The notes under the pieces: generated by a model | What the model was told of the DNA's origin: nothing | The model's database searches: none | The model's input: only the letters and a program-made list of their open reading frames with translations | From: Bacillota bacterium | GTDB lineage: Bacteria; Bacillota; Sulfobacillia; UBA8153 | Assembly (NCBI GenBank): GCA_040756655.1 | Contig: JBFLYN010000005.1 | Coordinates: forward strand, 4,563-68,562 | Length of the DNA stretch: 64,000 bases | Reading direction: 5' to 3' | Position numbers and translations under genes: made by a program | In this document: piece by piece, positions 3,827 through 53,089 of the stretch | Layout of the letters: each line of letters opens with the position of its first letter | Numbering within the stretch: position 1 is the stretch's first letter

Positions 3827-4119
3827 TGGGATTCTTTGCTGCACGCACGCGCACGTCAACCTGGTAGTAGTTTTGTCCATACATGATCTTGTATACTGGC
3901 ATTGTTTGCCCGGCCTTCCACCCAGAAGTTCCGCACGTGAGTAGGTAAAATCCGGGTTTGAGCAGGGCAAGGGAAGGGGTTTGATTGGCGGGGCTAATTC
4001 GAATGGTTTGGCCGAGTTTGCCATCGGTTCGATCGGTTCAATCAGTTAGCTCAAAACTTCCAATTGCAGCTTTATCCCACTTAAAAGGAATTTCCCTTGG
4101 CCGGGTGTAACTGGTACTT

Positions 4120-5369: not shown

Positions 5370-5573
5370 CCCCAGGCTCGGGTGGTGAGATGCAAGGTGC
5401 CAGTGCAATAAGAGCGAAAGGAAGACCGCGCTTGCGGTCCGAGACGGTTTAAGCGGGCAACGGTTGCTTCCGGTATCATGACTCGACTCCCCCACTTGAC
5501 TACGCAAATGGCAGCAGCTGGGGGCAGATGCGGAACCTCTGCCTTCCACCGGAAACAATCGCAAACCAGCGGG

Positions 5574-7649
5574 CTAACCAGTAAAGAGGAGACCGAAGCT
5601 TCTGCCGAACCGAGACAACACCATCCTGCGCAGGGCGCCGTGTTCGGGCTGAGAAAGCGTCGGGTCGCCGCCCACCAGGGCAATGGCCTCTGTCCGGGCC
5701 AGCTCTACCAGCTCGAGATCCCTGACTGGATCAGCTACTTTGAAATCTGGTAACCCGTGTTGCCTGGTGCCGAAAAACTCGCCGGGGCCCCTTAGCATAA
5801 GGTCCTCTTCGGCCAGTTTAAAGCCATCGGTAACTCGCTCCATGACCTCCAGCCGCTGCCGCGCCTGGTCGGTGCGCGGCTCTCCCACGAGAATGCAGAA
5901 CGACTGTTCGTGGCCCCGGCCCACCCGGCCCCGTAGCTGGTGTAGCTGGGAAAGACCGAACCTGTCGGCCCCTTCAATGACCATGACGGTGGCGTTGGGT
6001 ACGTCCACTCCCACCTCGATGACAGTGGTACATACCACCACCTGCAACTGGTGTTCACGAAATGCCTGCATGGTCGCATGTTTGAGCTTCGCCGCCATGC
6101 GGCCGTGCAACAGCCCGACCCTCAGGCCCCGCAGGGCACCGCGGGACAGCTCCTGGGCCAGCTCGGTGGCTGCTTCAGCCTCCAGTTTGTCCGACTCGGC
6201 CACCAGCGGGCACACCACGTAAGCCTGCCGGCCGGCCTCCACCTGCTCGCGCACGAACCGGTAGACCAGCGGCCTCCGGTCCTCCCGGCGCCAGAAAGTT
6301 CTCACCGGCCGCCGGCCCGGGGGGAGCTCGTCCACGGAAGAAACGTCCAAGTCTCCATAGATGGTCAGAGCCAGGGTGCGGGGAATGGGCGTGGCGGTCA
6401 TCACCAGTACGTCGGGACACGCCCCCTTTTGTTGGAGCAGGGCACGCTGGCGTACCCCAAACCGGTGCTGCTCATCGGTGACTGCCAAGCTCAAGTTGGA
6501 AAACCCCACCGGATCCTGGATGAGAGCATGAGTGCCCACCACCACGTCCAACCCGCCCCTGGACAGAAGCTCCCGCAGCTTTGCCCGTTGGCCCTTGTCA
6601 GTGCTGCCCGTCAGCAACGCGATCCGGACGCCGGCAGGCTCAAGATAACTCCTGAGGTTGGCATAGTGCTGCTCAGCCAAAAGCTCGGTGGGCGCCATGA
6701 GCGCGGCCTGCCTGCCGCTGTCCACTGCCTTGGCCATGGCCAGGGCCGCCACCACCGTCTTACCCGAACCCACGTCGCCCTGCACCAGTCGGTTCATGGG
6801 CGCGGGGCTGGCCATGTCCTGCCAGACTTCGCCGGTGACTCGCTCCTGGGCCCGGGTCAGCCGGAAAGGGAGCCCGGCCAGCACCTGGCTAACCGCGCGG
6901 CCATTCGGCCCGTGACTTACTCCCAGGCGTTGCTGGCTGTACAGCCTGCGGAACTGTGACAGGGCCACCTGCAGCACGAACAACTCCTCGAAAGCCAAGC
7001 GACGACGAGCCTGTTCCAGCGCGCCCAGGTCAGGCGGGAAATGCATGTCGCGCAGGGCCTGTTCCGCCGCGACCAGGCCGGTACGGGCCCGCAAGTCTGC
7101 AGGCAGAGCTTCAGGAAGGACACCGGCATAGCGCTGGGTGGCCTCAAACATGATCTTGCGCAGGCCCGTCTGGGTAAGGCCCGCGCCCAGGGGATAGACC
7201 GGCACCAGCCGTCCGGTACTCAGGTTCTCAGCCTGACCGGGGAATTCAAACTCGGGGGCGTCCACCTGGAGTTCGCCAAAGCGCCGCTCCACCCGGCCGG
7301 TTACCACCAGTTCAACACCGGGGCGGAAGGTGCGTTTCATGTAGGGCTGGTTCCACCATAGTGCCATTACCATGCCAGTGCCGTCGCTAATGCCCACCTT
7401 AACCAGGTGTTTGCCCGGCCGAGGATGAAGCTCGCTTACCGAAACCACCCGCCCGCGGAAGGTCTGGCGGACACCCTCTTGCAGCTGGGAAAGGGGCTTG
7501 AGACTGGTGCGGTCATCGTGGTACCTGGGGTAGTGCTCCAAGAGCTGGGCAACACTAGTCAGGCCCAGGCGCTCCAAGGCCCGGGCCCGGGCCGGACCTA
7601 CTCCCTTGACGTATTGCAGACCCTGGTCAACCCCGGCTCCATCCGACAT
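5574..7649 (-). CDS. recG: ATP-dependent DNA helicase RecG
   Basis: Translation from the ATG at 7649 gives MSDGAGVDQGLQYVKGVGPARARALERLGLTSVAQLLEHYPRY..., followed by a wedge domain and SF2 helicase motifs (GDVGSGKT, DEQHRFG). The family match is unambiguous. Confidence 0.95.
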   Translation of the reverse strand: MSDGAGVDQGLQYVKGVGPARARALERLGLTSVAQLLEHYPRYHDDRTSLKPLSQLQEGVRQTFRGRVVSVSELHPRPGKHLVKVGISDGTGMVMALWWNQPYMKRTFRPGVELVVTGRVERRFGELQVDAPEFEFPGQAENLSTGRLVPVYPLGAGLTQTGLRKIMFEATQRYAGVLPEALPADLRARTGLVAAEQALRDMHFPPDLGALEQARRRLAFEELFVLQVALSQFRRLYSQQRLGVSHGPNGRAVSQVLAGLPFRLTRAQERVTGEVWQDMASPAPMNRLVQGDVGSGKTVVAALAMAKAVDSGRQAALMAPTELLAEQHYANLRSYLEPAGVRIALLTGSTDKGQRAKLRELLSRGGLDVVVGTHALIQDPVGFSNLSLAVTDEQHRFGVRQRALLQQKGACPDVLVMTATPIPRTLALTIYGDLDVSSVDELPPGRRPVRTFWRREDRRPLVYRFVREQVEAGRQAYVVCPLVAESDKLEAEAATELAQELSRGALRGLRVGLLHGRMAAKLKHATMQAFREHQLQVVVCTTVIEVGVDVPNATVMVIEGADRFGLSQLHQLRGRVGRGHEQSFCILVGEPRTDQARQRLEVMERVTDGFKLAEEDLMLRGPGEFFGTRQHGLPDFKVADPVRDLELVELARTEAIALVGGDPTLSQPEHGALRRMVLSRFGRSFGLLFTG

Positions 7650-38294: not shown

Positions 38295-39461
38295 CTAGCC
38301 CAGGGCCGCCCGGATCCTCTGGGTAGCCTCCCGCAGGCGGTCCTCTTCCACCGTGCAGGCAAAGCGAAGGTAGTCCCGCCCGGCTTTTCCGTAGGCAGCA
38401 CCGGGGACGGCGATGACGTGAGCTTGTTCCAGGAGGCGGGCAGCCAGCCCGGCTGCATCCTCGCCCGGCGGAGCCGGTGCCCACACGTAAAAGGTGCCCA
38501 AGGGAGCTTTTACGTCAAACCCCGCCTGGCGGAGGCCCTCCACCAGCACTTGCCTGCGGGCAGCGTAGACCTGGTTCATGCCGGTGATGAAATCAGCAGG
38601 ATCGTGCTCTAGGGCCGCCACCCCGGCCAGTTGCACGGCGGCAAACTGACCAGAGTCGGTGTTGGTCTTGATGATGCCCAGGGCCCGGAAGACCACATCC
38701 TGGTTGCCCAGGGCCGCACCCAACCGCCAGCCCGTCATGTTAAAAGGTTTAGACAGGGAGTAGAACTCCACGGCCACTTCCCGGGCTCCCGTCACTTGCA
38801 GGATGCTGGGCGCCCGGTAACCATCGAAAGTCAGCTCCACGTAGGCAGCATCGTGACACACCACCAGGCCGTGCCGGTGGGCAAAATCCACCACGTGCTC
38901 GAAAAAGCCCAGGTCGACCACGCCGGTGGTGGGGTTGTTGGGGTAGTTCAAAAGGAGTACCCGGGCCCGGTCGAGGACCGCGGCCGGCACCGCCTCTAAG
39001 TCGGGGAGGAAGCCATTGTCCGCGGCCAGAGGGAGCGGGTAGGGTTCAGCACCGGCCAGCAGAGTGTGGGTACGGTAGACCGGGTAGGCCGGTTCGGGCA
39101 CCAGCGCCACATCGCCGGGACCCACCAGCCCCCAGAGCAGGTGGGCCAGGCCTTCCTTGGACCCGATGACCGTCATCACTTCCCGCTCCGGGTCGAGGTT
39201 CACTCCGAAGCGGCGCTGGTAATAGCGGGCCATGGCCGAACGGAATTCCAGGATGCCCTCGTAAGGCGGGTAGCGGTGAGTGGCCGGGTCCTGGGCGGCC
39301 CGGGCAAGCGCCTCAATGACATGGATGGGGGTAGGGCGGTCGGGGTCCCCCACCCCGAGATCGATGAGGTCGGCCCCCTGCGCGGTCAGGGCGGCCTTCT
39401 TCTTGTTCAGTTCGGCAAACAGGTAGGGCGGTACCTGGGCAATGCGCTCTGCGAATCTCAC
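38295..39461 (-). CDS. dapL: LL-diaminopimelate aminotransferase (DapL-type class I aminotransferase)
   Basis: GTG start at 39461 (VRFAERIAQVPPYLFAELNKKKAALTAQGADLIDLGVGDPDRPTP...), with NPNNPTTGVV also present. The start overlaps the dapF stop in a GTGA arrangement. Confidence 0.8.
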   Translation of the reverse strand: MRFAERIAQVPPYLFAELNKKKAALTAQGADLIDLGVGDPDRPTPIHVIEALARAAQDPATHRYPPYEGILEFRSAMARYYQRRFGVNLDPEREVMTVIGSKEGLAHLLWGLVGPGDVALVPEPAYPVYRTHTLLAGAEPYPLPLAADNGFLPDLEAVPAAVLDRARVLLLNYPNNPTTGVVDLGFFEHVVDFAHRHGLVVCHDAAYVELTFDGYRAPSILQVTGAREVAVEFYSLSKPFNMTGWRLGAALGNQDVVFRALGIIKTNTDSGQFAAVQLAGVAALEHDPADFITGMNQVYAARRQVLVEGLRQAGFDVKAPLGTFYVWAPAPPGEDAAGLAARLLEQAHVIAVPGAAYGKAGRDYLRFACTVEEDRLREATQRIRAALG

Positions 39462-40318
39462 CGGACATTCCCTCCCGTCAAACCCGATGTAAACACCCCA
39501 GTGCAGATTTCCTCGGCCGGCCCCCGGTGCCAGGCATGGCCGTCGTCCCGCCAGACTATCTCCAGGGTCCCGCCTGGCTGGTGGACTTTGACCTCTCGCT
39601 GGCAACGCCCGGCCAACACGGCGGCCACTGCCGACGCCGTGGCTCCGGTGCCCGAGGCCATGGTGATACCTGAACCCCGCTCCCAGATGCGCATGGCCAG
39701 CTCCTGCTGGTTGAGAACCTGAACGAACTCCACGTTGGTCCGTTCAGGAAATGCTGGGTGGTGTTCTATGCTGGGACCAGTGTGCTCCACTTCCACTTGC
39801 CACACATCCTCGACGAAGATCACACAATGCGGGTTCCCCAGGGAAAGACAGGTCACCGGGAACTTGACCCCGTCGACTACCAGGAGTTCTCCTATGACAT
39901 GGTCGCCGGGAGGACCAACCATGGGAATATCGGCCCTTCTGAGCCGGGGGACGCCCATGTCTACCTCCACGGCAGTGACCTTCCCGCCCTCCACCACCAG
40001 GCGGGGCCGGATGATGCCGGCGAGGGTTTCCACGGCCAGTTCCTGCTTTTGGGTCAGGCCGCGGTCGTATACGAAACGGGCCAAGCAACGCATGCCGTTG
40101 CCGCACATCTGGGCCTCTGAACCATCGGCGTTGAACATGCGCATGCGAAAATCCGCCCGGTCTGACGGCAGGACCAGGATGAGTCCATCGGAACCGACAC
40201 CATAGTGGCGGTGGGAGACCCGCCGGGCCACCGTGGGCCAATCCGTCCCCTCGTCTCCCCGGGGGAGGTAGACGTAGATATAGTCATTGCCCAGCCCGTG
40301 CATTTTCACAAACTCCAT
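39458..40318 (-). CDS. dapF: diaminopimelate epimerase
   Basis: The ATG at 40318 gives MEFVKMHGLGNDYIYVYLPRG... and the catalytic Cys regions (MCGNGMRC, GSGTGA... MASGTGA) are present. Confidence 0.9.
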   Translation of the reverse strand: MEFVKMHGLGNDYIYVYLPRGDEGTDWPTVARRVSHRHYGVGSDGLILVLPSDRADFRMRMFNADGSEAQMCGNGMRCLARFVYDRGLTQKQELAVETLAGIIRPRLVVEGGKVTAVEVDMGVPRLRRADIPMVGPPGDHVIGELLVVDGVKFPVTCLSLGNPHCVIFVEDVWQVEVEHTGPSIEHHPAFPERTNVEFVQVLNQQELAMRIWERGSGITMASGTGATASAVAAVLAGRCQREVKVHQPGGTLEIVWRDDGHAWHRGPAEEICTGVFTSGLTGGNVR

Positions 40319-40341
40319 GGTGCACTCACTCCAGTCCCGGT

Positions 40342-43077
40342 TTAAAGATCGTGTCTTTCCACCCCGGAGCGTGCAATTCCTGCCACAACTTGCGCCAGAA
40401 GATGCCTGACGGCGGCTGTTACCAGCATCAGGCCGGACACGGCCAGCGCCGCCATCCATTCTTCCAAGGTTAGACTCCTAGTCTGGAAGTGCGGCTGCAG
40501 GGCCGGGTGAGTGGCCGCCACCAGGGTCATGGCCACTGAGCACGTCACCGCCACCACGAGCCAGGGGTTGCTGGTCAGGCCCATGCTGAAGACGTTGCGC
40601 GTTTCCGACCGGCACTCAAAAACGTGGAAAAGCTGGCAAAACACCAGTGTAACAAAGGCCACGGTGCGGGCCCGGGCAACATCGCCGGTCTGGCCGAGGC
40701 ACCAGCCGAAGGTCAGCGCCGTGGCCGCTGCGATCATTATCCCGCGCACCGCTATCTTTATGCCAAGGCCCCTGGAAAACACACCCTCCTCGCTCCGCCG
40801 GGGCGGGCGCCGCATGTTGTCCGGGTCCGCCGGGTCCACGCCCAGGGCCATGGCGGGCAGCCCGTCGGTGACCAGGTTGACCCACAGGATCTGCATGGGT
40901 ATTAGGGGCAGTGGCCATCCCAGCAGGACGGCGGCCAGCATGACCAGGACTTCGCCTACGTTACATGAAAGAAGGTACCGGATGAACTTGCGGATGTTGT
41001 CGTAGATGGCCCGCCCTTCCTCCACCGCCGCCACGATAGTGCGGAAGTTGTCATCGGCCAAGATCATGTCGGAGGCCTCTTTGGTCACGTCGGTGCCCGA
41101 AAGCCCCATGGCGATGCCGATGTCCGCTTCCTTGACGGCCGGCGCGTCGTTGACCCCATCGCCGGTCATGGCTACCACGTGTCCCTGGGCCCGGAAGGCC
41201 CGGATGAGCCTGAGCTTGTGCTGGGGTGAAACCCGGGCGTAAACCGAAGTGTGCTCCAGGTGGCGGGCCAGTGCCGGGTCGTCCAGTGCGTCTAGCTGGG
41301 CGCCCGTCAGCACGCCTGTGCCCGGGGTCATGAGGCCGGTCTCCCGGGCGACGGCTGCGGCTGTGGCCGGGTGATCACCGGTGATCATGACCGGCCGGAT
41401 GCCCGCCTGGCGGCACCTGGATACCGCCAGCACCGCTTCGGGCCTGGGGGGATCCAACAGTCCCACGATGCCCAGGAAAACCGCGTCTTTCTCAATTTCC
41501 GTCTCACCGGTCGCGGGCAGGTCCCGGTAGGCCAGCGCCAGGACACGCAGCGCCTGCCCGGCCATGGTATCGGCCTGACCGGTGATGCGCCTTTGCCACC
41601 CGGCGTCCAGCCGGTGTTCGGAATCCCCGGCCCGGGCTAGACTGCACATGCCCATGACCGTATCAGGCGCGCCCTTGATGTAGGCACGTCGCACGGCGCC
41701 GCGCTGGACGACCACGCTCATGCAGCGGCGCTCGGCGCTGAAAGGTAGTTCGTCCACGCGGGGGTTGCATCGTGAGAGCGTTTCCCCATCCAGGCCCAGT
41801 TTGGCCGCTGCCACCAGCAGGGCGCCCTCGGTGGGGTCCCCGCTTACCTTCCACTTCCGCTGGATCCTACCCCGTTGCCTTACGTTTTCCTGGAGTAGCC
41901 GTGCATTGTTACAGATGGCCCCGGCGGTGAGGATCAAGGCAAGATCCGGCGCTGCCGGGGCGCCTTCCACCAGGCTGAACTGGCCCTCCGGGCTGTAGCC
42001 GCTGCCGCTGACCTCGTAACGAGCTCCGGAGGCCAGGGTCACTTCCCGGAGAGTCATCTCGTTTTTGGTGAGCGTCCCGGTCTTATCCGAGCAGATCAGG
42101 GTGGCGCACCCCAGGGTCTCCACAGCCGGCAGCCTCCGTACTATGGCCGAACGCGCCGCCATGCGCTGTACGCCCAGGGCCAGCGCTACCGTGACCACGG
42201 CCGGGAGCCCCTCCGGTATGGCGGCCACGGCCAGGCTGACCCCGGCCAGGAACATGTGGAACCAGGACTCACCGCGGGTGATGCCGGCTGCCACCACCAG
42301 CCCGCAGACAAGAAGACAGGCCAGCCCCAGGTAGCGGCCAAGATGGTCCAGGCGTCGCTGGAGGGGAGTGTCCCCGGTGCCGGCCTCTTCGATGGTTTCG
42401 GCGATGGCCCCCATTTCCGTCTCCATGCCCGTGGCCACCACTACTCCCCGGGCCCGGCCCTGGGTCACCACCGTTCCCATGAACACCATGTTGGTCCAGT
42501 CGGGCGACGCTAGCTCCCGGCCGGGTAGCACCCCGGCATGCTTGGCCACGGGCAGGGATTCGCCGGTCAGGAGCGATTGGTCCACTTCCAGCGCCCGGGC
42601 GTGCAAAATCCGGGCATCGGCGGGCACCCGGTCGCCCGGGCCCAGCTGGATGATGTCCCCTGGCACCAGCTCCTCGGCCGGGACCACGCATTCAGCTCCG
42701 TCACGCAGCGCCCGGGCCACCGGAGCGGTCATGCGTTTCAGTGCATGTAAGGAACGCTCGGCCCGGTATTCCTGCACAAAGCCCAAGACGGCGTTGAGCA
42801 CCACGATGACCACGATAGTGACGGCGTCGGCCACTTCCCCCAAGAGGGCGGCCACGGCAGTGGCGGCCAGCAACATCATGACCATGAAATCCTTGAACTG
42901 GTCCAAGAGGATCCGGAGCACCGGGAGCCCGTCGCCGGTTTCCAGGACATTAAGCCCGTAGCGGTCCAGCCGTTCGCGGCACTGGCGGCTGGTAAGCCCC
43001 TCCCACGAACTGCCCAGAAGCTCCAGGACCGTGTCGTTGTCCAGCCCGTGCCAGTGCAGTTTTCCCACTCCCGTCAA
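40342..43077 (-). CDS. calcium-translocating P-type ATPase (PMCA/SERCA-like, YloB homologue)
   Basis: 911-aa ORF with DKTGTLT, TGDGVNDAPAVK and MTGD motifs and 10 TM segments. The start is a TTG at 43077 or a GTG at 43068; neither has a good RBS. Confidence 0.9.
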   Translation of the reverse strand: MTGVGKLHWHGLDNDTVLELLGSSWEGLTSRQCRERLDRYGLNVLETGDGLPVLRILLDQFKDFMVMMLLAATAVAALLGEVADAVTIVVIVVLNAVLGFVQEYRAERSLHALKRMTAPVARALRDGAECVVPAEELVPGDIIQLGPGDRVPADARILHARALEVDQSLLTGESLPVAKHAGVLPGRELASPDWTNMVFMGTVVTQGRARGVVVATGMETEMGAIAETIEEAGTGDTPLQRRLDHLGRYLGLACLLVCGLVVAAGITRGESWFHMFLAGVSLAVAAIPEGLPAVVTVALALGVQRMAARSAIVRRLPAVETLGCATLICSDKTGTLTKNEMTLREVTLASGARYEVSGSGYSPEGQFSLVEGAPAAPDLALILTAGAICNNARLLQENVRQRGRIQRKWKVSGDPTEGALLVAAAKLGLDGETLSRCNPRVDELPFSAERRCMSVVVQRGAVRRAYIKGAPDTVMGMCSLARAGDSEHRLDAGWQRRITGQADTMAGQALRVLALAYRDLPATGETEIEKDAVFLGIVGLLDPPRPEAVLAVSRCRQAGIRPVMITGDHPATAAAVARETGLMTPGTGVLTGAQLDALDDPALARHLEHTSVYARVSPQHKLRLIRAFRAQGHVVAMTGDGVNDAPAVKEADIGIAMGLSGTDVTKEASDMILADDNFRTIVAAVEEGRAIYDNIRKFIRYLLSCNVGEVLVMLAAVLLGWPLPLIPMQILWVNLVTDGLPAMALGVDPADPDNMRRPPRRSEEGVFSRGLGIKIAVRGIMIAAATALTFGWCLGQTGDVARARTVAFVTLVFCQLFHVFECRSETRNVFSMGLTSNPWLVVAVTCSVAMTLVAATHPALQPHFQTRSLTLEEWMAALAVSGLMLVTAAVRHLLAQVVAGIARSGVERHDL

Positions 43078-43149
43078 GGCGCGCTATCAGATGAATATGC
43101 CGGGAGTGAAAGGAAAAGCCCGGCCAACGGCCGGGCGCCAAGGATGCAG

Positions 43150-43254
43150 CTACTTCTTTGCGAAAGTGTCTTTGCCCTCACACTGGGGACACTTGCGGGG
43201 CTTGCACCTGGCATCCTTTTCATGGCCGCACGCTGCACATTTCCAAACTGCCAC
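43150..43254 (-). CDS. unannotated 34-aa zinc-ribbon (CxxC...CxxC) mini-protein
   Basis: The GTG at 43254 is preceded by GGAGAGGAGGG and gives VAVWKCAACGHEKDARCKPRKCPQCEGKDTFAKK followed by a stop. It sits between the Clp1-like gene and the ATPase gene and is absent from the supplied ORF list. Confidence 0.45.
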   Translation of the reverse strand: MAVWKCAACGHEKDARCKPRKCPQCEGKDTFAKK

Positions 43255-43273
43255 CCGGATCCCTCCTCTCCCG

Positions 43274-44449
43274 TCAGATCTCTTTGGGCCGCAACCTTCC
43301 CAGTTCCCGGCCGTCCCGGGTCACCCGGGTGGTGCCGAACACCAGGCCGGTCACGGCCACCTCTACCGGCGTGTACACCCGGGCCTTCCCGCCGGCAAAG
43401 TCCAACCCCTCCAAGACTCCCGTGCCGGCCAGCTCACCCCGGCCGTCCAACAGACCCACCTGGAGCTGGTCGTATGCCGACTGGGACACGGCGTACACAC
43501 GACTTCTGTCCATCAACACAGGACGCGAGGGTGGGGATCCGGGCACCACGGCATAGATGCCATCGGCCGCCCGCTCGGCGTAGACTACCCCAGTTCCCAG
43601 CCGCAATTCCAGGGCCCGGCAGGCAGCGTCATCCAGGCGCTCTCCCGTGCGGTAGCGGGTGCGCAGGCACCTTACGCTGGCCAGGTCCAGCACGCGCAGG
43701 CTCCCGCCTTCCATGGCCCGCCGGTACCCTTCTTCGCGGGCTGCGCGCCGGTACTCCCGGTCTTTCCTCTGGACCCCCGGGGGTACTGCCAGCCTCCAGA
43801 TGCGGGAAGTGCTGGTATCCGGGTAGGCTCGTAACAGGTGCTCTACCTCGCCGGCCCGTTGGAGGGCGACCAGGTGCCGGGGCCTGAGGCCCTCCAGCTT
43901 GGCACCCTTCAGGTAACGCCCGTACGGCCCGTGGATGAGCCCGGTGGTGTTGACCACCACGGCGATGGCACCGCTTTGACGAGCCGCCTCCACCATGCGC
44001 CAGATGCCTGCCAAGAAGGTGGCCTCCACTCCCGGCGGCGAGGTGGCTCCCACGAAAAAGGCAGCGTCCGGGCTAAGTTCGCTCCAACGGGCGACTGGGC
44101 CCCGCACCCGGGCCATGGCGATGGTGCCCGGCGGGCCCAGGTCAGACTGGCCCGTATCCGTGTCCACTATGGCAGTAGCCAGCCCGGCCACAAACAGCAT
44201 GCGGGCCAATTCCAGGACGAACGTGGACTTGCCCGTGTCTGGGCCCCCTACAACCAGCACCAGTCCCGGGTCGGCCCGCACCCTTTCTACTAAGAAGCGC
44301 CCAGTTTGCATGGGTGGAATATTCTCCTCTCCCCATCCGCCGGGCTTCCTGCTCACCGCAGGTAACCTGCTGGTGGACCACGGGCCCCAGCTTGAGTGGC
44401 CCGGAGGATGGGGTCCCTTCAGAATGTTACTCTGACGTAGCGTATCCAC
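43274..44449 (-). CDS. Clp1/Grc3-family P-loop polynucleotide kinase homologue
   Basis: GRFLVERVRADPGLVLVVGGPDTGKSTFVLELARMLFVAGLATAIVDTDTGQSDLGPPGTIAMARV matches the Clp1 P-loop and the following D.GQ/PG segment. The start is either the GTG at 44449 or the ATG at 44311. Confidence 0.6.
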   Translation of the reverse strand: MDTLRQSNILKGPHPPGHSSWGPWSTSRLPAVSRKPGGWGEENIPPMQTGRFLVERVRADPGLVLVVGGPDTGKSTFVLELARMLFVAGLATAIVDTDTGQSDLGPPGTIAMARVRGPVARWSELSPDAAFFVGATSPPGVEATFLAGIWRMVEAARQSGAIAVVVNTTGLIHGPYGRYLKGAKLEGLRPRHLVALQRAGEVEHLLRAYPDTSTSRIWRLAVPPGVQRKDREYRRAAREEGYRRAMEGGSLRVLDLASVRCLRTRYRTGERLDDAACRALELRLGTGVVYAERAADGIYAVVPGSPPSRPVLMDRSRVYAVSQSAYDQLQVGLLDGRGELAGTGVLEGLDFAGGKARVYTPVEVAVTGLVFGTTRVTRDGRELGRLRPKEI

Positions 44450-44557
44450 TCTTCCAGGTAGGTTCGAGGCGACCGCCCGGGGATCTCCGGTAGGCTTGCA
44501 CTAACCCGTCCCCTCCTGCCCGTCTCTCGAACCTTGCCAGAGTGAAGCTACTCCCCC

Positions 44558-45109
44558 CTATTTGAAAAGTTCCCAGTATTCATCGCCCCAGTACTTCCTG
44601 ATAAACTCGTCCCGTCCGGACGCCATACGGTCTGCCTTGTACACGGCGGGGCACTTTCGGTGAAAGTCCTGGTGGTACTCTTCGGCATGGTAAAAGACAC
44701 CCGCCGGCAAAATCGCGGTAACGATGGGGCCGGGGAACCGGCCCGAAGCCTCCAACTCCTGCTTCGAGGCCTCGGCTTTTTGCCTTTGCTCTTCGTTGGT
44801 GTAGAAGATGGCTGCCCGGTAGGACGGGCCCCGGTCATGAAACTGACCGCCCGGGTCGGTGGGATCGATCTGCATCCAGAAGGCTTTGAGGAGTATGTCG
44901 TAACTGGTGATGGCCGGGTCGTAGGTGATGCATACGGCTTCATAATGCCCGGAGGTCTGGGACTTGACCTCCTCGTAGGTGGGGTTTTCCAGGTGACCGC
45001 CGGTGTAGCCAGAGCGTACTTCCAAGACCCCGTCCAGCAGTGCAAATGGGGATACCATGCACCAAAAACACCCGCCGGCGAATACGGCAGTAGCTGCCCG
45101 GTTGCCCAT
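44558..45109 (-). CDS. msrA: peptide methionine sulfoxide reductase MsrA
   Basis: The ATG at 45109 gives MGNRAATAVFAGGCFWCMVSPF...GYTGGH...HQDFHRKCP, with the GCFWC active site. Confidence 0.9.
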   Translation of the reverse strand: MGNRAATAVFAGGCFWCMVSPFALLDGVLEVRSGYTGGHLENPTYEEVKSQTSGHYEAVCITYDPAITSYDILLKAFWMQIDPTDPGGQFHDRGPSYRAAIFYTNEEQRQKAEASKQELEASGRFPGPIVTAILPAGVFYHAEEYHQDFHRKCPAVYKADRMASGRDEFIRKYWGDEYWELFK

Positions 45110-45288
45110 GCTCGTGTTTCCTCCCGTTCGGACCGCTGCTTTCCGTCTGGCATGGATATTCTCCTCCACCGCCCGGCTTCCTGCATGCGTGGCTGGCGGG
45201 TTGTGGATGGCCACCTCTTACTGGTATAATCGGGGTTACCGGGCCCGGTGAACTTCTGGACCCAGGTTTGGCTGTGGAGGACGGCAAC

Positions 45289-47016
45289 ATGACCATGGAC
45301 GCTGCCGCCCTGGCGGGTATAGTTTTCGACGTGAGGCAATGGACGGGCGCCCGGGTAGACCGGGTGTTTCAGCCGTCGGCTTCCGAGGTCCATCTTTCGC
45401 TAAGGCGGCCCGGACAGGCCCAGCGCCTGTGCCTGGGGCTCAGGCCGGACCTGCCCCGCCTCCATTTCACCGCCGCCCGCCCGGAAAACCCTGCCCATCC
45501 CCCGGCCTTCTGCATGGGCCTGAGAAAGTGGCTGGAAGGCGCCCGCCTCCTGCGGGTGGAGTACCCACCCTGGGAACGGTGGGTGGGGTTGCACTTCGCT
45601 GGCCGCTCCAGCCTGGGTGACGAGGTAGAACTGGGGCTCTATGCCGAGCTCATCCCCGGGGCCACCAACCTGGTGCTGGTGCGCCTGCCCAACCGCCAGG
45701 TGCTGGCTGCGCTCAAGCCCGGTACAACCAGCTACCAGCCGCCGCCTCCCCTGTCCGGACCACTGCCCGGCCAAGTTAGCGAAGAAGCACTGGCCGCCGG
45801 GCTCCAGGGCGAAGGGCCGGCCTGGCAGTGCATCCTGGGCACGGTCCGGGGCTTCGGCCCGGTGCTGGCCCGGGAGGCCGTGTACCGTGCCGGCTTCGAC
45901 CCCGGGGCTCCGCCCCGGTTGGTGGAGCCTGCCCGGCTGACGCGGGCGGTGGGCGGGATCGCTGCGGAAGTGGCGGCCGGGCAGTTTTGGCCGGCGGCAT
46001 ATTGCGATGGCCAAGGGCGGCCGCGGCTTTGGCATGTGCTCAAACTGGCGCACCTCCCGGGTCACGTGGCAGAAGCGGCTGAAACCGCCAGCGCCGCCGC
46101 GGACCGCTTCTACACCGCCCACCTGGAGGAAGCAGCCTTCCGCTCCCGGCTCTCGGCCCTGCAAGGCGCACTGGCATCTGCTCGTAAGCGGCTGGAACGC
46201 AAGCGGCTGGCCCAAGCGGCAGACCTACAGCGAGCCGGGGCGGCAGGGGATTTCCGGCTCTGGGCCGAACTCCTCACCGCCTACGCCGACCGGGTGCCAC
46301 CCGGGACCGCTACGGCCAGCCTTCCCAATTACTACCTGCCTGGTAGCCCCGAAGTGTCCATTCCCCTGGACCCGGCGCTGAATGCCCGGGCCAATGCCCG
46401 GGTCTATTTTGACCGTCACGCCAAGGCCGAACGCACACGCCGTGCGGCCACCAAAGAGCTGGAGCGCACCGGGGCCGAACTTGAGTACCTGGAGCGGGTT
46501 AGCGAGACGGTGGAAGCCTGCCGGACCGTGCAGGACCTGGGCGAGGTCTGGGAAGAGCTCGGCGCGGCCGGGTTCATCCGAAACCCACCCGGGCCAGCCG
46601 GGACCCGGGCCCCGAAACCCGACTTCACCGGGCTGGAACTGGTATCTTCACGGGGCGATAGGATCATGGTGGGAAAAAACCACCGGCAGAACGAGCAGCT
46701 GGTGCGGGTGGCCCGGCCCGATGACGTGTGGCTCCACGCCCGGGGCGTGCCCGGCGCTCACGTGCTGCTCCGCCCCGGTAGCGACCAGGGCAGGGAATGG
46801 CCGTCCCGGGAAAGCCTGGAAGAAGCCGCTGAACTTGCCGCGCATTTCAGTCGGGCGGGCAAAGCCCGGTGGGTGGAGGTAGACTGGACCCGGGCCCGGC
46901 ACGTACGGCGGCCCCGCGACGCCAGGCCCGGGCAGGTCATCTATGATCACCAGCAGACTGTACGGGTCAGCTCCGTCCCCCGGCTTTTTCCCTCGCGCAA
47001 CCCACCAGCTGGCTGA
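45289..47016 (+). CDS. rqcH: RqcH/YloA (NFACT family, FbpA-like) ribosome quality control protein
   Basis: The ATG at 45289 has a GGAGGA RBS. NFACT-N, coiled-coil and NFACT-R (DUF814) domains are present (...SSRGDRIMVGKNHRQNEQLVRVARPDDVWLHARGVPGAHVLL...). Confidence 0.85.
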   Translation: MTMDAAALAGIVFDVRQWTGARVDRVFQPSASEVHLSLRRPGQAQRLCLGLRPDLPRLHFTAARPENPAHPPAFCMGLRKWLEGARLLRVEYPPWERWVGLHFAGRSSLGDEVELGLYAELIPGATNLVLVRLPNRQVLAALKPGTTSYQPPPPLSGPLPGQVSEEALAAGLQGEGPAWQCILGTVRGFGPVLAREAVYRAGFDPGAPPRLVEPARLTRAVGGIAAEVAAGQFWPAAYCDGQGRPRLWHVLKLAHLPGHVAEAAETASAAADRFYTAHLEEAAFRSRLSALQGALASARKRLERKRLAQAADLQRAGAAGDFRLWAELLTAYADRVPPGTATASLPNYYLPGSPEVSIPLDPALNARANARVYFDRHAKAERTRRAATKELERTGAELEYLERVSETVEACRTVQDLGEVWEELGAAGFIRNPPGPAGTRAPKPDFTGLELVSSRGDRIMVGKNHRQNEQLVRVARPDDVWLHARGVPGAHVLLRPGSDQGREWPSRESLEEAAELAAHFSRAGKARWVEVDWTRARHVRRPRDARPGQVIYDHQQTVRVSSVPRLFPSRNPPAG

Positions 47017-47905
47017 CCTTCTGCATACCGTGCTCCTCCAGGTAGCGGTGGATGCCTTCCACCACGGCCAGGGGCGACCGGGGATCCACGAAACTGGCCG
47101 TGCCCATCATGACGGCGCTGGCCCCGGCCATGAGGTATTCCAGGGCATCGGGCGCTTGCAAGATGCCGCCCATGCCGATGACCGGCACCCCGGCATGTGC
47201 GGATACCTCCCAGACCATGCGCACACCCACCGGCCGGATGGCGGGCCCGGAAAGACCTCCGGTTACATTGCCCAGGATGGGACGGCGTCTTTGCACATCA
47301 ATGGCCAGCCCCAAGAGGGTGTTGATAAGGGAGATCACGTCGGCCCCGGCCTGTTCCACAGCCCTGGCAATGGCGCGGATATCGGTGACATTGGGTGAGA
47401 GTTTGACCAGCACTGGCAGTCCGGTATTCCTGCGTACGGCGGCCGTGACCCGGGCCGCACTGGCAGCCTCCACCCCGAAGGCCAGCCCCCCGCACTTGAC
47501 GTTGGGACAGGAAATGTTCACTTCCAAGGCAGCTACCCCCGGGGCCCGGTCCAGGCGGCGGGCCAGCGTGGCATACTCCTCCTCATCCTCTCCGGCGATG
47601 TTCACCACTACCGGGCAGCCCAGGCCCTGGAGAAAGGGCAGTTCCTCCTGGATGAACCCTTCGAGGCCGGGGTTTTCCAGACCGATGGCGTTGAGCATGC
47701 CCGCCGGGGTCTCATAGACCCGGGGCGGGGGGTTCCCCATGCGGGGGCGCACGGTCACCGCCTTGGTGACCAGGGCGCCTAGGTTGGCCAGATCGTAGCA
47801 GCGACTGTACTCCCGGCCGAAGCCTGCCGTGCCCGATGCCAGCATGACCGGGTTTTTCAGTTTGAGCTTTCCAAGGTCCACCCCAAGGTCAGGCACATCA
47901 CCCAC
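46967..47905 (-). CDS. pyrD: dihydroorotate dehydrogenase (class 1B) catalytic subunit
   Basis: LKLKNPVMLASGTAGFG...LGALVTKAVT...GMLNAIGLENPG matches PyrD. The gene follows pyrK. Its 3' end is convergent with, and overlaps, rqcH. Confidence 0.9.
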   Translation of the reverse strand: MGDVPDLGVDLGKLKLKNPVMLASGTAGFGREYSRCYDLANLGALVTKAVTVRPRMGNPPPRVYETPAGMLNAIGLENPGLEGFIQEELPFLQGLGCPVVVNIAGEDEEEYATLARRLDRAPGVAALEVNISCPNVKCGGLAFGVEAASAARVTAAVRRNTGLPVLVKLSPNVTDIRAIARAVEQAGADVISLINTLLGLAIDVQRRRPILGNVTGGLSGPAIRPVGVRMVWEVSAHAGVPVIGMGGILQAPDALEYLMAGASAVMMGTASFVDPRSPLAVVEGIHRYLEEHGMQKVSQLVGCAREKAGGRS

Positions 47906-48716
47906 CCCCTCCCGGCAAGCCTGCGAGCACCACCTGGTTGGAGCAGAACACCGGCCCGTCCCGGCAAACCTTCAGGTATCCACCGGACCCGGCGGCCTGG
48001 ACGGCACACCCCAGGCACGCGCCCACCCCGCAGGCCATGTATTGCTCCAGGGAGATATACGTGCTGATGGAGTACTCCCGGGCCAGATCCTGCACGACGG
48101 CGAGCATGGGCACCGGGCCGCACGCGTAGAGGCTGGTGTACTCCTCCCGGGACAGTTCCTCCCGGACCAGGGCGGTAACCAGGCCCGGGTGGCCGGCGGA
48201 ACCATCATCGGTGGCCAGGCGCACCCGGGCGCCCAGCCCCTCAAGTTCGTCCACTCCCACCAAGAGCCCGGCGCTGCGCGCTCCCACGCATGCGGTCACC
48301 ATCGCCCCCGCCTGTATCGCACACGCGGTAGCCCCCACCAGCGGGGCTATGCCGATGCCGCCTGCCGCCACCAGCAGACGACGCCCGGCCGGCGGCACAG
48401 AAAACCCTTGTCCCAGGGGACCCACCAGGTCCAACTGGTCCCCGGCCTCCAGGGCACCCAACCACTGCGTGCCGGCTCCGGCGTGCCTCACCAGCAGCAC
48501 GAGTTCGCCCGCCTCCGGGTGGGAGCGGGCGATACTGATCGGGCGGCGGAGGAGCGGGGACAGTCCCCGGCTCACCCGCAAGTGCACAAACTGCCCGGGC
48601 CGGGCCGCCTGGGCACACCCGGGCGCTAGTATCCTCAGACGGAAATGGCCGGGGGCCACCGGGCGGTTCTCCAATACGGTGGCCATCACCGGCGCCAGTG
48701 GGAACTCAAGCGGCAT
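47898..48716 (-). CDS. pyrK: dihydroorotate dehydrogenase electron-transfer subunit PyrK
   Basis: A ferredoxin-reductase fold is followed by the C-terminal motif YMACGVGACLGCAV. Confidence 0.9.
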   Translation of the reverse strand: MPLEFPLAPVMATVLENRPVAPGHFRLRILAPGCAQAARPGQFVHLRVSRGLSPLLRRPISIARSHPEAGELVLLVRHAGAGTQWLGALEAGDQLDLVGPLGQGFSVPPAGRRLLVAAGGIGIAPLVGATACAIQAGAMVTACVGARSAGLLVGVDELEGLGARVRLATDDGSAGHPGLVTALVREELSREEYTSLYACGPVPMLAVVQDLAREYSISTYISLEQYMACGVGACLGCAVQAAGSGGYLKVCRDGPVFCSNQVVLAGLPGGGG

Positions 48717-48725
48717 GCGACCCTC

Positions 48726-51700
48726 CTAGCTGCCGGTGGACCGGTGGGCCCGGCCCACAGCTTCGTACTGCTGGAGCGCAACGGGTCCCGCCAGTGGCCG
48801 GCTTTTGCGGTGTAGCATGGCCCGGACGGCGGCGGCCGCCGTGTCCGGCGAAGTCAGGCAGGGCACCCCGAACTCGGCGGCGGTCCTCCTGATCTTGAAC
48901 CCGTCACGCTGGGGTACTTTGCCCCGGGTAAGGGTATTGATGACCAGCACCACCTGCCCGGTGGCGATGACATCAAGTACGTGGGGGGAGCCTTCGTCCA
49001 ATTTGGCGACGGTCTCTACCGGTAGCCCGGCCGCCTCCAGGCTGCGGGCGGTGCCGCGGGTGGCCATCAAATGATACCCGGCACCGAAAAGGGCGCGACC
49101 CAGTTCAACCCCGACGGGCTTGTCGCGGTCGGCCACGCTCAGCAACACGGTCCCGGCCCCGGGGAGGTTCACCCCGGCGGCCAAGAACCCCTTGGCCAGC
49201 GCCTCGGCGGCATCCACGTCCACGCCGATGACCTCGCCGGTGGATTTCATCTCCGGGCCCAGGCCGGTATCCACTGCGGTGAGCTTGGCCCAGGAAAACA
49301 CCGGGACTTTCACCGCTACCAGAGCAGAAGGCGGAACCAGGCCAGTTTGGGCGCCCAGGCTGGCCAGGCTAGCCCCGAGAATGATTCGGGTGGCCAGCGG
49401 CACCATGGGAACGCCGGTGACCTTGGTCAAAAACGGTACCGTCCTGCTGGAGCGCAAGTTCGCCTCCAGCACGTAGACCTGGTTGTCTTTGATGACGAAC
49501 TGCACGTTCATGAGCCCGCGCACATTCAGGCCCCGGGCCAGCCGCCGGGTGTAGTCGATTATGGTGTCCTGGAGCGGTTGAGCTAGACTCTGGGCCGGGC
49601 ACATGGCAATGCTGTCTCCAGAATGAACACCGGCCCTTTCTACGTGTTCCATGATGGCCGGCACCAGCACGTCCTCGCCATCGGCCACGGCATCCACCTC
49701 GACCTCACGGCCTTCGAAATACCGGTCCACCAGCACCGGGTGCCGGTCAGAAACCACCACCGCCGAGCGCATGTACTCGAAAAGATCCTCGTCGTTGTAT
49801 ACGATCTCCATGGACCTGCCGCCCAGCACGTAAGAGGGGCGGACCAGCACCGGGTAGCCTACCCGGTGGGCGATGGCCAGGGCCTGGGTGGTATCAAAGG
49901 CCGTGCCCCCCGGGGGGCGGGGGATGTCCAGGCGGGTTAACAGCCGGTCGAATTTTTCCCGGTCTTCGGAGATGTCCAGGGACTCTACGGAAGTACCCAG
50001 CACCAGGGCGTGCTTGGCCACCTCGGACGCTAGGTTGATGGCTGTCTGCCCTCCGAACTGCACCACCACGCCCACGGGCTTTTCCAGGCGGATTACGCTC
50101 ATCACATCCTCGGCGGTGAGCGGTTCGAAGTACAGGCGGTCAGACGCGTTAAAGTCCGTGGACACGGTCTCCGGGTTGTTGTTGAGCATGATGCATTCCA
50201 GTCCCGCCTCCCTCAGGCTGGTGACGGCGTGGACGGAAGAGTAATCGAACTCGATGCCCTGACCGATGCGGATGGGTCCCGAGCCCAGCACCAGTACCTT
50301 CGGGCGGCCAGTGGGAACGGCTTCATTCTCCCGGGCCCGGTAAGTGGAGTAGAAGTAGGGCGTGGTGGCTTCAAACTCGGCAGCGCAGGTGTCCACCATC
50401 TTGTAGACGGGCTCGATTCCCTGTTCCCAGCGGAGCCGCTGCAAGTGCTCAACATCCAGCCCGGCGATGGCCGCCAGGCGAGCATCGGAAAACCCCAGTT
50501 CCTTGGCCGGGCGCAACAGGCCCGGCAGGGCACCGGGCTCCATGAGCCGGGCCTCCATGGAGGTGATGCGCTTGATCCCTTCCAGGAAGAACGGGTCAAT
50601 GTGGCAGAGTGCGTGGATTTCCATGACCTCCCGGCCCCGGCGCAAAAGCTCGGCGATGATGAACATCCTCCGATCATCCGGGCTCTCCAGCGCCTGCCAG
50701 AGGCTGGAGGTATCCTGGGATGCCAGTTCCCGTAGGTACAAGCCGTCGGCCCCGGTCTCCGCCGAGCGGATGGCTTTCTGGAGGGCACCCTCGAAGGTGC
50801 GGTCGATGGCCATGACTTCTCCGGTGGCTTTCATCTGGGTGCCCAGGCTCCGGTTGGCTCCCCGGAACTTGTCAAAGGGCCAGCGCGGGAACTTCAGCAC
50901 CACGTAGTCGATGGCCGGCTCGAAGCAGGCCGAAGTGGCGCCGGTGACCGGGTTGGTGATTTCGGTAAGGTCCAGACCCACGGCGATCTTAGTCGCTACC
51001 CTGGCGATGGGATAGCCCGTGGCCTTGGACGCCAGCGCGCTGGAGCGGCTCACCCGGGGGTTGACCTCGATGACGCAGTACTGGCCGGTACGTGGGTCTA
51101 GAGCAAACTGGACGTTGCACCCACCGGCGATGCCCAGGGTGCAGATGATGTCCAGGGCCGCCCGGCGTAGTTTCTGGTTCTCGCGGTCGGTGAGTGTGAG
51201 AGTCGGGGCCACCACGATGCTGTCGCCGGTGTGGATGCCCATGGGGTCTATGTTCTCCATGGCGCAGATGGCCACGCAGTTTCCGCCCAGGTCCCGCATG
51301 ACCTCGTACTCAATTTCCTTCCAGCCCTCCACGCTGCGCTCCAGGAGAACCTGGCTGATGGGGCTGAGCTTTAGCCCCCGGGCCACGATCAGCTCGAATT
51401 CCTCGTAGGTACGGGCCAGACCGCCGCCGGTGCCGCCCAGGGTGTAGGCCGGGCGCACCACCAGGGGCAGTCCCACCCGGCGGGCAAAGTCCTTGGCCTC
51501 GGATAGCCGGTGGACGATGGCGCTTAAGGGCACCGGGTGTCCGGCCCTTTCCATGGCCTCCTTGAAAAGCAGGCGGTCTTCGGCCATCTGGATGGAGGCA
51601 AGGGAGGTGCCCAAAAGCTCCACCCCGTACTGCTCCAACACCCCGGCCCGCGAAAGCTCCACCGCCAAGTTCAAACCCACCTGCCCCCCAAGCGTGGCCA

Positions 51701-51959
51701 GCAGGCCCTGGGGACGCTCGGCGCGGATGATCTGGGTGGCCACGTCCAGGCGCAAGGGCTCCAGGTACACCCGGTCAGCTACCTCTGCGTCGGTCATGAT
51801 GGTGGCGGGATTAGAGTTTAACAATACCACGGACAGGCCTTCTTCTCGTAAGGCCCGGCAGGCCTGGGTTCCGGCGTAGTCAAACTCCGCCGCCTGCCCG
51901 ATGATGATGGGACCGGAGCCTACGACCATTACTTTCTCCAGACCGGTACGGAGCGGCAA
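48726..51959 (-). CDS. carB: carbamoyl-phosphate synthase large subunit
   Basis: 1077-aa ORF with duplicated ATP-grasp halves and an MGS-like C-terminus. The family match is unambiguous. Confidence 0.97.
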
Positions 51960-51961
51960 GT

Positions 51962-53089
51962 TTATTCCCCCTGGTATGCCAAGGCCGCCGGAAACTCCGG
52001 GGCTTTCTGGGCTGGTGCCTGGCCGCCGAGACTGGTGAGAAACGCGGCCAGGAGGTGCTCGGAATCATTGGGGCCCGGGCCCACCTCTGGGTGGTATTGC
52101 AGGGTGTTCACCGGCAGCCTGCGGTGGGAAAGCCCCTCTACGGTAGCATCGTGCAGGTGGGTGTGGGTGATGTCCACGCCCAGGCCGGCCAGGGATTCCC
52201 GGACCACGGCATATCCATGGTTTTGTGCGGTCATCTGCACGTGATTGGTGCGGAGGTCGCGTACCGGGTGGTTCCCGCCCCGGTGCCCATACTTGAGTTT
52301 GAAGGTGCGGGCGCCCATGGCCAGGGCCAGCACCTGGTGGCCAAGGCAGATCCCGAACAGTCGCGTCTTGCCCAGCAGCTCCCGGGCGGTGCCAATGGCC
52401 GCGTGGGCATCAGCTGGGTCCCCGGGCCCGTTAGAGAACAAGACGCCAGCGGGGTCCATGTCCAGGATGTCTTCAGCGGGGGTGGTGGGCGGCACCACCG
52501 TCACCGTGCAGTTGTGCCTGGAGAAATACCGGATGAGGTTGAGTTTCACCCCCAGGTCCACCACCACCAGGTGCGGCCCGTCTCCGAATACGCGCCAGGG
52601 CCGCCCGGTGGCCACCTCGGCCACAAGGTCGGAGGGGCCCTGGCAGCTGAGCTGCCGGACCAGTTCCTCGCCCGGCGCATCGCCCGAGGTAATGGCCCCA
52701 TTCATGGTGCCGTGCACCCGGAGCTTGCGGGTCAGGGCCCGGGTGTCCACGCCTTCCAGGGCGAGGATACCGTGACCGTAGAGGTAGTCGTCCAGGCGGC
52801 CGATCATCCTGGTATGGGAAGGGGTCGCGCACAGCTGGTGCACCACCAGCCCGCGCACGAAGGGCCTGTGAGACTGTGAGTCCCCTTCACAGATCCCGGT
52901 GTTCCCAATGAGAGGATAGGTCATGGTCACGATCTGCCCGCAATACGATGGGTCGGTCAGCACTTCCTGGTAGCCGGTCATGCCCGTGTTGAACACCACT
53001 TCTCCAAAGGCCGTACCCGGGCGTCCGAAGGCTCTCCCCTCGTAGACAGTCCCATCCTCAAGCACCAGGCGTCCCCGCATGCTGTTCAC
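51962..53089 (-). CDS. carA: carbamoyl-phosphate synthase small (glutaminase) subunit
   Basis: [19 protein letters not shown]... is followed by a class-I glutamine amidotransferase domain (GICLGHQ). Confidence 0.95.

Follow-up and report, generated by a model that had tools for sequence, protein, structure and literature searches.

A prokaryotic-type Clp1-family kinase gene and a 34-residue RCKP-type rubredoxin-like gene in a Bacillota contig

The DNA analyzed here, called the window below, is a stretch of 64,000 nucleotides (nt) from a Bacillota bacterium (GTDB lineage Bacillota; Sulfobacillia; UBA8153; GenBank assembly GCA_040756655.1, contig JBFLYN010000005.1, positions 4,563 to 68,562). 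Our subject is a pair of adjacent minus-strand genes within it, one encoding a homolog of the Clp1/Nol9/Grc3 polynucleotide kinases and the other, directly downstream, a 34-residue protein with paired cysteines (the mini-protein, encoded by the mini-gene). The gene for the ribosome rescue factor RqcH lies close by. An original prediction, made by a model from the DNA letters, read these three genes together as a hint of RNA repair or processing.

Results

Start site, family, and fold of the kinase gene

The minus strand contains open reading frames (ORFs) at 43274..44449 (391 amino acids [aa] from a GTG) and 43150..43254 (34 aa, also from a GTG). The first was originally described as a 391-aa protein carrying Clp1-type P-loop strings. 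The strings are present, but the reading from GTG 44449 is probably over-extended, and a 345-aa protein that begins at ATG 44311 (M47 of the longer reading) is likelier. We prefer this start because three observations agree on it: a GGGGAGAGGAG box lies upstream of the ATG; the N termini of 18 homologs align at M47, leaving the 46 upstream codons without a counterpart; and the public record holds an identical 345-aa product, encoded on a 104-kb contig (MEW6522666.1, "MAG: Clp1/GlmU family protein [Bacillota bacterium]"). Residues are numbered below on the 345-aa protein unless stated otherwise.

Assignment of the P-loop protein to the Clp1 family, as first proposed, is upheld alike by the Pfam profile, a profile search of the PDB, and the predicted fold. 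The profile CLP1_P (PF16575) scores 114.9 bits at residues 68 to 244 of the 391-aa reading, where 26.6 bits is the gathering score (E = 5.3e-33), and no NTPase family competes more strongly, the next-best P-loop families having E values of 0.01 or higher. The same domain is carried by all 29 homologs (29/29). When a profile of 19 kinase homologs (alignment A1) was compared with solved structures, the best relatives were human CLP1 (2.9e-19), Caenorhabditis elegans Clp1, NOL9, and GRC3. An AlphaFold2 model built on A1 has a mean predicted local distance difference test score of 92.2 and a predicted template modeling score of 0.90; its top 22 Foldseek matches in the PDB are all Clp1/Grc3/Nol9 structures, led by C. 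elegans Clp1 with single-stranded RNA (ssRNA) and ADP-AlF4 (E = 4e-16, 351 aligned columns). About 130 extra aligned residues imply that the beta-rich domain at approximately residues 205 to 345 corresponds to the Clp1 C-terminal domain, and both parts that define a Clp1 fold, the kinase domain and the C-terminal domain, are found in the predicted model. No eukaryote-type N-terminal domain is seen in the model, in which the P-loop begins at residue 22 of 345; a short N terminus that lacks this domain is expected of prokaryotic Clp1 members (PMC6777427). It is thus strongly supported that the window protein belongs to the Clp1/Nol9/Grc3 family and is of the prokaryotic type, in which a P-loop kinase domain is followed by a C-terminal domain like that of Clp1.

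A role of the kinase or the mini-protein in anti-phage defense was considered and rejected, as PADLOC gave no real match. Its result for the kinase was a weak match limited to the P-loop (mad8, E = 1.3e-4, residues 14 to 81), and it returned none for the mini-protein.

Active-site motifs and predicted chemistry

The Walker A pattern GxxxxGK[S/T] is present, with G22, D25, G27, and K28 invariant in the 19 homologs, and so is the Walker B pattern [D/E]hhQ, in which D50, D52, G54, Q55, and S56 are invariant in the same set. The lid arginines R188 and R192 also do not vary, but their spacing is RxxxR and differs from the published RxxxxR. The clasp departs from expectation. In eukaryotic Clp1 the clasp tryptophan stacks on the terminal RNA base. 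The RNA-binding clasp has been defined as [T/S/L]xGW (PMC6777427); the window protein reads TTGL at this place, and the tryptophan position is occupied by leucine or methionine in 19 of 19 homologs, with the threonine and glycine conserved.

The best inference that we can draw from sequence and model is that the window protein is likely an RNA 5'-OH kinase. Such an enzyme would bind ATP-Mg2+ through the Walker A residues K28 and S29 and the Walker B aspartates D50 and D52, with the lid arginines stabilizing the transition state, and would move the gamma-phosphate to the 5'-OH end of ssRNA, using DNA less well. Ends with a 5'-OH, such as those produced by metal-independent RNases, would become 5'-monophosphate ends, which could then be degraded by 5'-P-dependent nucleases or ligated.

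Distribution and known relatives

Clp1-type kinases were originally said to be rare and uncharacterized in bacteria, and the first half of this statement stands. A scan of 185,579 species genomes with one pattern found at least 504 Clp1-like loci, archaeal members included, a number that confirms rarity even though it is a lower bound. A published survey counted Clp1-family genes in 14 of 1,543 bacterial species, with Ammonifex degensii (368 aa) as the single case among 293 Firmicutes, the bacterial proteins being listed at 233 to 374 aa (Saito et al. 2019, PMC6777427). The second half holds only in part, as the Clp1 of Thermus scotoductus (Ts-Clp1, UniProt E8PQM6; 240 aa) was assayed in 2019; it phosphorylates ssRNA and, more weakly, single-stranded DNA, and its Km for ATP is 2.5 µM (PMC6777427).

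Ts-Clp1 and the other bacterial proteins of that survey resemble the window protein: the CLP1_P kinase domain is near the N terminus, the segment before it is short, and the distribution is rare and patchy. Saito et al. describe Ts-Clp1 as devoid of both terminal domains and cite the missing conserved archaeal C-terminal domain as typical of bacterial Clp1 (PMC6777427), whereas the C-terminal domain of the window protein, about 140 aa, superposes on Clp1 structures. By its sequence, the window protein falls in a longer subfamily that also has archaeal members: homologs from Thermoproteota, Hadarchaeota, and Jordarchaeia align over approximately residues 2 to 345 with 33 to 37% identity and are as close as most bacterial ones. 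Archaeal Clp1 of Pyrococcus horikoshii (PH0197, 361 aa), likened here by its description, has the same two-domain layout and a similar length. The gene neighborhoods of the archaeal relatives differ from that of the window and contain no consistent RNA-processing partner; a tRNA-splicing context is not to be expected in a bacterium. Biochemically, the archaeal enzyme is reported to be a thermostable 5'-OH kinase that prefers RNA (PMC6777427).

The eukaryotic proteins (human CLP1, C. elegans clpf-1, and Grc3/Nol9) are the best matches by profile and fold, and their Walker A, Walker B, and lid arginines align with those of the window protein, but identity is only 13 to 23%. Unlike eukaryotic Clp1, the window protein lacks the N-terminal beta-sandwich domain, has leucine for the clasp tryptophan, and is without Pcf11, TSEN, or Las1 partners. 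The predicted chemistry, phosphorylation of polynucleotide 5'-OH ends, is also that of T4 Pnkp and of the bacterial Pnkp-Hen1 end-healing system.

The mini-gene

The 34-aa ORF matches the NCBIfam family NF045720 ("RCKP-type rubredoxin-like") over residues 1 to 34 of 34, with 66.7 bits against a cut-off of 45 (E = 9.3e-19). It was at first reported as unannotated, which is true of the ORF list supplied at that time only, because the public record already names it (MEW6522665.1, "RCKP-type rubredoxin-like domain-containing protein"). The gene begins 19 nt after the kinase stop codon and, as originally noted, has its own strong ribosome-binding site, GGAGAGGAGGG, 6 nt 5' of the GTG start. The same motif precedes the mini-gene of locus L001, a relative from UBA8153, and between these two copies the codon differences comprise 12 synonymous and 10 non-synonymous changes. 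The cysteine pattern was first given as CxxC-x11-CxxC; the actual spacing is CxxC-x12-CxxC (C6, C9, C22, and C25), with a fifth invariant cysteine (C17) in the RCKP motif. All five cysteines and this motif are conserved in 46 to 47 related sequences from genomes of 29 to 71% GC. RCKP mini-proteins collected from metagenome loci (L081 to L123) are 33 to 56 aa long and extremely conserved; one further candidate of that scan, L124, was discarded as a false positive, being a zinc knuckle within a long tRNA-synthetase-like ORF. A phmmer search of 1.84 billion representative proteins returned 66 clusters at E ≤ 1e-3, mostly of 31 to 90 aa, a few of which are unrelated multi-repeat zinc-ribbon proteins.

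An ORF of only 34 codons, with a GTG start and no entry in the first ORF list, might be suspected of having arisen by chance or of not being functionally expressed. The full-length, above-cut-off match to a curated family, the cysteines and RCKP motif that are invariant across 47 sequences of such different base composition, the number of synonymous differences (about as many as non-synonymous ones), the strong ribosome-binding site, the terminator that follows, and the 66 representative clusters all speak against this, and we regard the suspicion as effectively refuted. The claim that the mini-ORF is a real, conserved gene is therefore sustained.

The product is predicted to be a stand-alone metal-binding knuckle with four cysteine ligands plus one further cysteine. 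It resembles the rubredoxin-like C-terminal domain of rubrerythrin (RUBY_RBDX, PF21349), which has the same CxxC-x12-CxxC knuckle, and the mini-protein has a weak Pfam match to it (E = 0.0012) and an NCBIfam rubrerythrin match to residues 157 to 186. It differs from that domain in standing alone at 34 aa with no ferritin-like domain attached, in its extra invariant cysteine, and in being strongly basic (its net charge of +5 is also the median of the RCKP proteins, all of which are basic). Classical rubredoxins are acidic proteins; their family (PF00301, approximately 50 aa) is not among the Pfam matches of the mini-protein at E ≤ 0.1. A literature search of PMC Creative Commons papers and bioRxiv found no mention of the RCKP family.

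Probable transcription unit and pairing of the two genes

A predicted intrinsic terminator (hairpin 43136..43118, 8 G-C pairs followed by a T-tract) lies between the mini-gene and the Ca-ATPase gene (Table 1), and the mini-gene of L001 also has a similar hairpin on its 3' side. Because the kinase gene and the mini-gene are 19 nt apart and the terminator occurs only after the latter, the two are probably transcribed as a unit that stops short of the Ca-ATPase gene. The original prediction placed both genes in one minus-strand block with a yloB-like ATPase, which is right as to strand, but the terminator separates them from that gene.

Table 1. Features of the locus and their coordinates in the window
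Feature	Coordinates	Strand	Remark
LL-DAP aminotransferase (LL-diaminopimelate aminotransferase)	38295..39605	-	NCBIfam-confirmed flanking gene
dapF	39458..40459 (ORF)	-	NCBIfam-confirmed flanking gene
Ca-ATPase	40342..43077	-	Pfam/NCBIfam assignment
Intrinsic terminator	43108..43136	-	GCCCGGCC-GTT-GGCCGGGC then TTTTCCTTTC; 14 nt past the mini-gene stop
RCKP-type rubredoxin-like mini-gene, 34 aa (MAVWKCAACGHEKDARCKPRKCPQCEGKDTFAKK)	43150..43254	-	NF045720 match
Mini-gene ribosome-binding site GGAGAGGAGGG	43261..43271	-	Within the 19-nt kinase/mini-gene spacer
Clp1/Nol9/Grc3-family kinase homolog, 345 aa	43274..44311 (stop codon included)	-	Pfam CLP1_P
C-terminal beta-rich domain, approximately residues 205-345	43277..43699	-	Resembles Clp1 C-terminal domain
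Lid arginines R188, R192 (RRAAR)	43736..43750	-	Aligns to RRECR of human CLP1
Clasp-like NTTGL, residues 121-125	43937..43951	-	Aligns to NTCGW in the human and C. elegans proteins
Walker B region DTDTGQS, residues 50-56	44144..44164	-	Aligns to ELDVGQG of human CLP1
Walker A/P-loop GGPDTGKS, residues 22-29	44225..44248	-	Aligns to GPTDVGKS of human CLP1
Spacer between msrA and kinase gene, 246 nt	44312..44557	-	Unusually stable predicted fold
msrA	44558..45214	-	Pfam/NCBIfam assignment
rqcH	45268..47016	+	Pfam/NCBIfam assignment
pyrD, pyrK, carB, carA	46967..53089	-	NCBIfam-confirmed housekeeping flank

Neighborhoods were counted in the best 80 of the at least 504 Clp1-like loci found in GTDB genomes (65 bacterial and 15 archaeal). 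The mini-gene occurs at only 2 of these 80, L001 (kinase 65% identical to that of the window) and L051, and is directly downstream of the kinase gene in both. Contigs of four closer relatives carry it as well, among them those in which the kinase is 64 to 65% (P0002 and P0003) or 52% identical (P0005), and it is absent from P0006 (47%). In all, the mini-gene follows the kinase gene in L001, L051, and L125 to L129 and is missing from the same-clade loci L002 (kinase 40% identical), L005 (37%), and L130. Seen from the other side, an hmmsearch with A1 found a Clp1-like protein at none of the 43 true RCKP loci from the metagenome scan (L081 to L123). Fourteen of these 43 lie within 4 kb of Pfam-confirmed rubrerythrin, flavodiiron protein, desulfoferrodoxin, or Fur-family genes, and the rest are heterogeneous. 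RCKP genes are more often found beside genes for rubrerythrin, superoxide reductase, or PerR; their usual neighbors are genes of the oxidative stress response, not RNA enzymes. The pairing of kinase gene and mini-gene is confined to one Bacillota clade. The original call for conservation of the mini-ORF and its synteny with the kinase is answered in part: the gene is conserved, but the pairing does not extend beyond this clade. The mini-protein is probably not an obligatory kinase subunit.

Kinase neighbors in other lineages

The commonest partner of the Clp1-like gene is a histidine phosphatase gene (His_Phos_1; approximately 213 aa), found directly downstream in 31 of the 80 loci and in several clades, mostly Armatimonadota, and usually with a stop/start overlap with the kinase gene. 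Examples among L006 to L079 are L012:7038-7682 and L006:7038-7679. The best curated matches of these proteins are to CobC-type (alpha-ribazole) and RNase H-linked acid phosphatases, all of them below cut-off. In four loci the pair is followed by a gene for a CobA/CobO/BtuR corrinoid adenosyltransferase (PF02572, E = 2.7e-63), a neighbor that hints at a cofactor-related role; no other cobalamin genes were found in these four loci (L016, L038, L073 at 4932-5498, and L077 at 4088-4654).

Other lineages have other partners. Symbiobacterium-type Bacillota loci (L003, L004 at 4903-5907, L008, L010, L020, L022, and L076) have a gene for a YhaM-like protein with an OB-fold and an HD domain just upstream of the Clp1-like gene and a Sir2-family or BshC gene downstream. 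One tight clade (L032, L037, L039, L040, L054, L057, L064, and L069) has a gene of the NTP_transf_5 family (PF14907, "uncharacterised nucleotidyltransferase") 2 to 21 nt downstream; most of these loci also have a PHP-domain gene upstream, in the opposite orientation. No homolog of the His_Phos, YhaM-like, NTP_transf_5, or PHP neighbors was found in the window. Most of these wider-family neighbors fit nucleic acid end processing, and they are also compatible with a small-molecule role.

The protein could accordingly be a small-molecule kinase in vivo, acting in the corrinoid/nucleotide-loop pathway or another cofactor pathway, its resemblance to Clp1 reflecting common ancestry only. This would suit the histidine phosphatases and adenosyltransferases just described, the loss of the RNA-stacking clasp tryptophan, and the neutral name "Clp1/GlmU family protein" used by NCBI. 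We consider it improbable. Every CobC-type match is below its curated cut-off, the CobO-type loci contain no further cobalamin genes, and the window is without such a phosphatase. The full-length structural likeness of the predicted model, C-terminal domain included, is to RNA kinases; the remaining neighbors, the YhaM-like OB-fold and HD exonuclease, NTP_transf_5, and PHP genes, are of nucleic acid type; and a bacterial homolog phosphorylates RNA in vitro (PMC6777427).

The rqcH neighborhood

The original prediction noted that rqcH is divergently encoded nearby. It is divergent, but from msrA, which intervenes between it and the kinase gene in the window. In L002, L005, L051, L129, and L130 the two genes are directly divergent, with a spacer of 74 to 167 nt; in the closest relatives (L125 to L128 and L001) msrA, an ATC_hydrolase gene, and a nitroreductase gene stand between them, of which the window keeps msrA only. 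In 77 of the 80 other Clp1-like loci, rqcH does not occur within 6 kb. The rqcH-linked loci (the window, L002, L005, L051, and L125 to L130) share the backbone pyrK-pyrD-rqcH...Ca-ATPase-dapF; their dapF and LL-DAP aminotransferase products are 57 to 65% identical to those of the window, and a rough neighbor-joining tree places their kinases within the Bacillota part of the Clp1 tree. Linkage to rqcH was seen in this one Bacillota clade and not in independent lineages. As all these loci have inherited one backbone, the linkage represents a single evolutionary event and does not provide independent evidence of a functional link. The backbone itself may be old. If the order in Bacillus subtilis is pyr operon, yloA (rqcH), yloB (Ca-ATPase), on which a literature search for yloA and yloB yielded no statement, the kinase gene was inserted into that backbone.

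One of these loci, L051 (JBLNBR010000032.1), is labeled Ignavibacteriales, and its taxonomic label or binning looks doubtful. The order rqcH<>clp1-RCKP-dapF-LL-DAP aminotransferase on this contig is also that of the Bacillota window, to whose dapF and aminotransferase products those of L051 are 59 to 60% identical.

Discussion

For the kinase and mini-gene, our analysis shows gene structure and family, the fold and its motifs, conservation, and synteny, whereas enzymatic activity, co-transcription, and metal binding are inferred. The explanation that we favor, at a probability of roughly 0.7, is that the first gene encodes a 5'-OH polynucleotide kinase, that its neighborhood was inherited within the clade, and that the mini-protein is not an obligatory subunit. 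Four observations weigh against it. The assayed bacterial enzyme, Ts-Clp1, has 240 aa and no C-terminal domain, whereas the window protein has 345 aa, a comparison made by published description. The clasp tryptophan is replaced by leucine or methionine throughout the subfamily, and judged from these sequences substrate binding may therefore differ. Outside this clade, translational coupling links the kinase gene to one for a histidine phosphatase of CobC-like type, with CobO next in some loci, which leaves room for a small-molecule substrate. Finally, the mini-gene has been kept beside the kinase gene despite divergence of the kinase to approximately 40% identity, which is compatible with a partnership.

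One such partnership, the reading of the original prediction, would be a two-component module dedicated to RNA repair or processing. In it, kinase and mini-protein would join RqcH in rescuing ribosomes, perhaps through phosphorylation of 5'-OH fragments of mRNA or tRNA from stalled ribosomes. Several observations could be read in this way: the two genes are separated by a short gap with a terminator only after the second, the pair is kept in six lineages with kinases 43 to 65% identical to that of the window, rqcH is closely divergent from the kinase gene in five loci, and the basic RCKP proteins would suit nucleic acid binding. There is also a eukaryotic precedent in yeast no-go decay, where 5'-OH ends are phosphorylated by a kinase (Trl1) ahead of decay by Xrn1 (PMC6949252). 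We nevertheless give this module, including the example of stalled ribosomes, only a small chance. Among the other Clp1-like loci, 78 of 80 are without the mini-gene and nearly as many are without a nearby rqcH; loss of the mini-gene is seen in three loci of the clade itself; the 43 RCKP loci have no Clp1-like gene, and about a third of them are near genes for rubrerythrin and similar proteins; the rqcH-linked loci amount to one event; and msrA separates the kinase gene from rqcH in the window. A functional triangle of kinase, mini-protein, and RqcH, resting as it does on single-clade synteny, is unlikely, and the link of the kinase to RqcH is not supported. The original prediction is supported in part: the kinase family and the mini-gene hold, and RNA 5'-end kinase activity is likely, but the pairing and the rqcH neighborhood are restricted to one clade, and oxidative stress genes are the usual neighbors of RCKP genes.

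A narrower version has slimmer prospects still, namely, that the kinase of this clade acts once ribosomes have stalled, perhaps with the aid of the basic RCKP protein, and phosphorylates 5'-OH mRNA or tRNA fragments of collided or split ribosomes. If true, this role would let a 5'-P-dependent exonuclease clear the fragments, would be a bacterial counterpart of the kinase-licensed decay in yeast no-go decay (Trl1/Xrn1, PMC6949252), and would explain the conserved divergent promoter region between rqcH and the Clp1-like gene.

The family of the kinase and the reality of the mini-gene are confirmed by our analysis, and neither is new, because curated families already cover both genes and the source record annotates them. 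What the locus adds is a well-defined Bacillota subfamily of Clp1 that keeps a Clp1-like C-terminal domain, together with a small operon partner. The two genes are candidates for experiment and leave existing knowledge unchanged. More informative is a by-product of the neighborhood comparison, the repeated, tight coupling of kinase and histidine phosphatase genes in other lineages. It suggests that kinase plus phosphatase form an unstudied module, which would serve either the healing of RNA ends or some cofactor pathway; the combination of a Clp1-like gene and a phosphatase gene recalls the kinase-plus-phosphatase healing of T4 Pnkp and Pnkp-Hen1.

Other features of the window

An Rfam scan of the window found no known RNA family. 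The spacer between msrA and the kinase gene has no promoter, terminator, or Rfam match and no similarity to sequences in relatives. Its origin as a remnant of the ATC_hydrolase or nitroreductase gene present in closer relatives was ruled out, as no trace of either is detectable. The spacer is nevertheless predicted to fold with unusual stability, with a minimum free energy of -115.8 kcal/mol (z = -3.87) that was equaled by 0 of 200 shuffled sequences.

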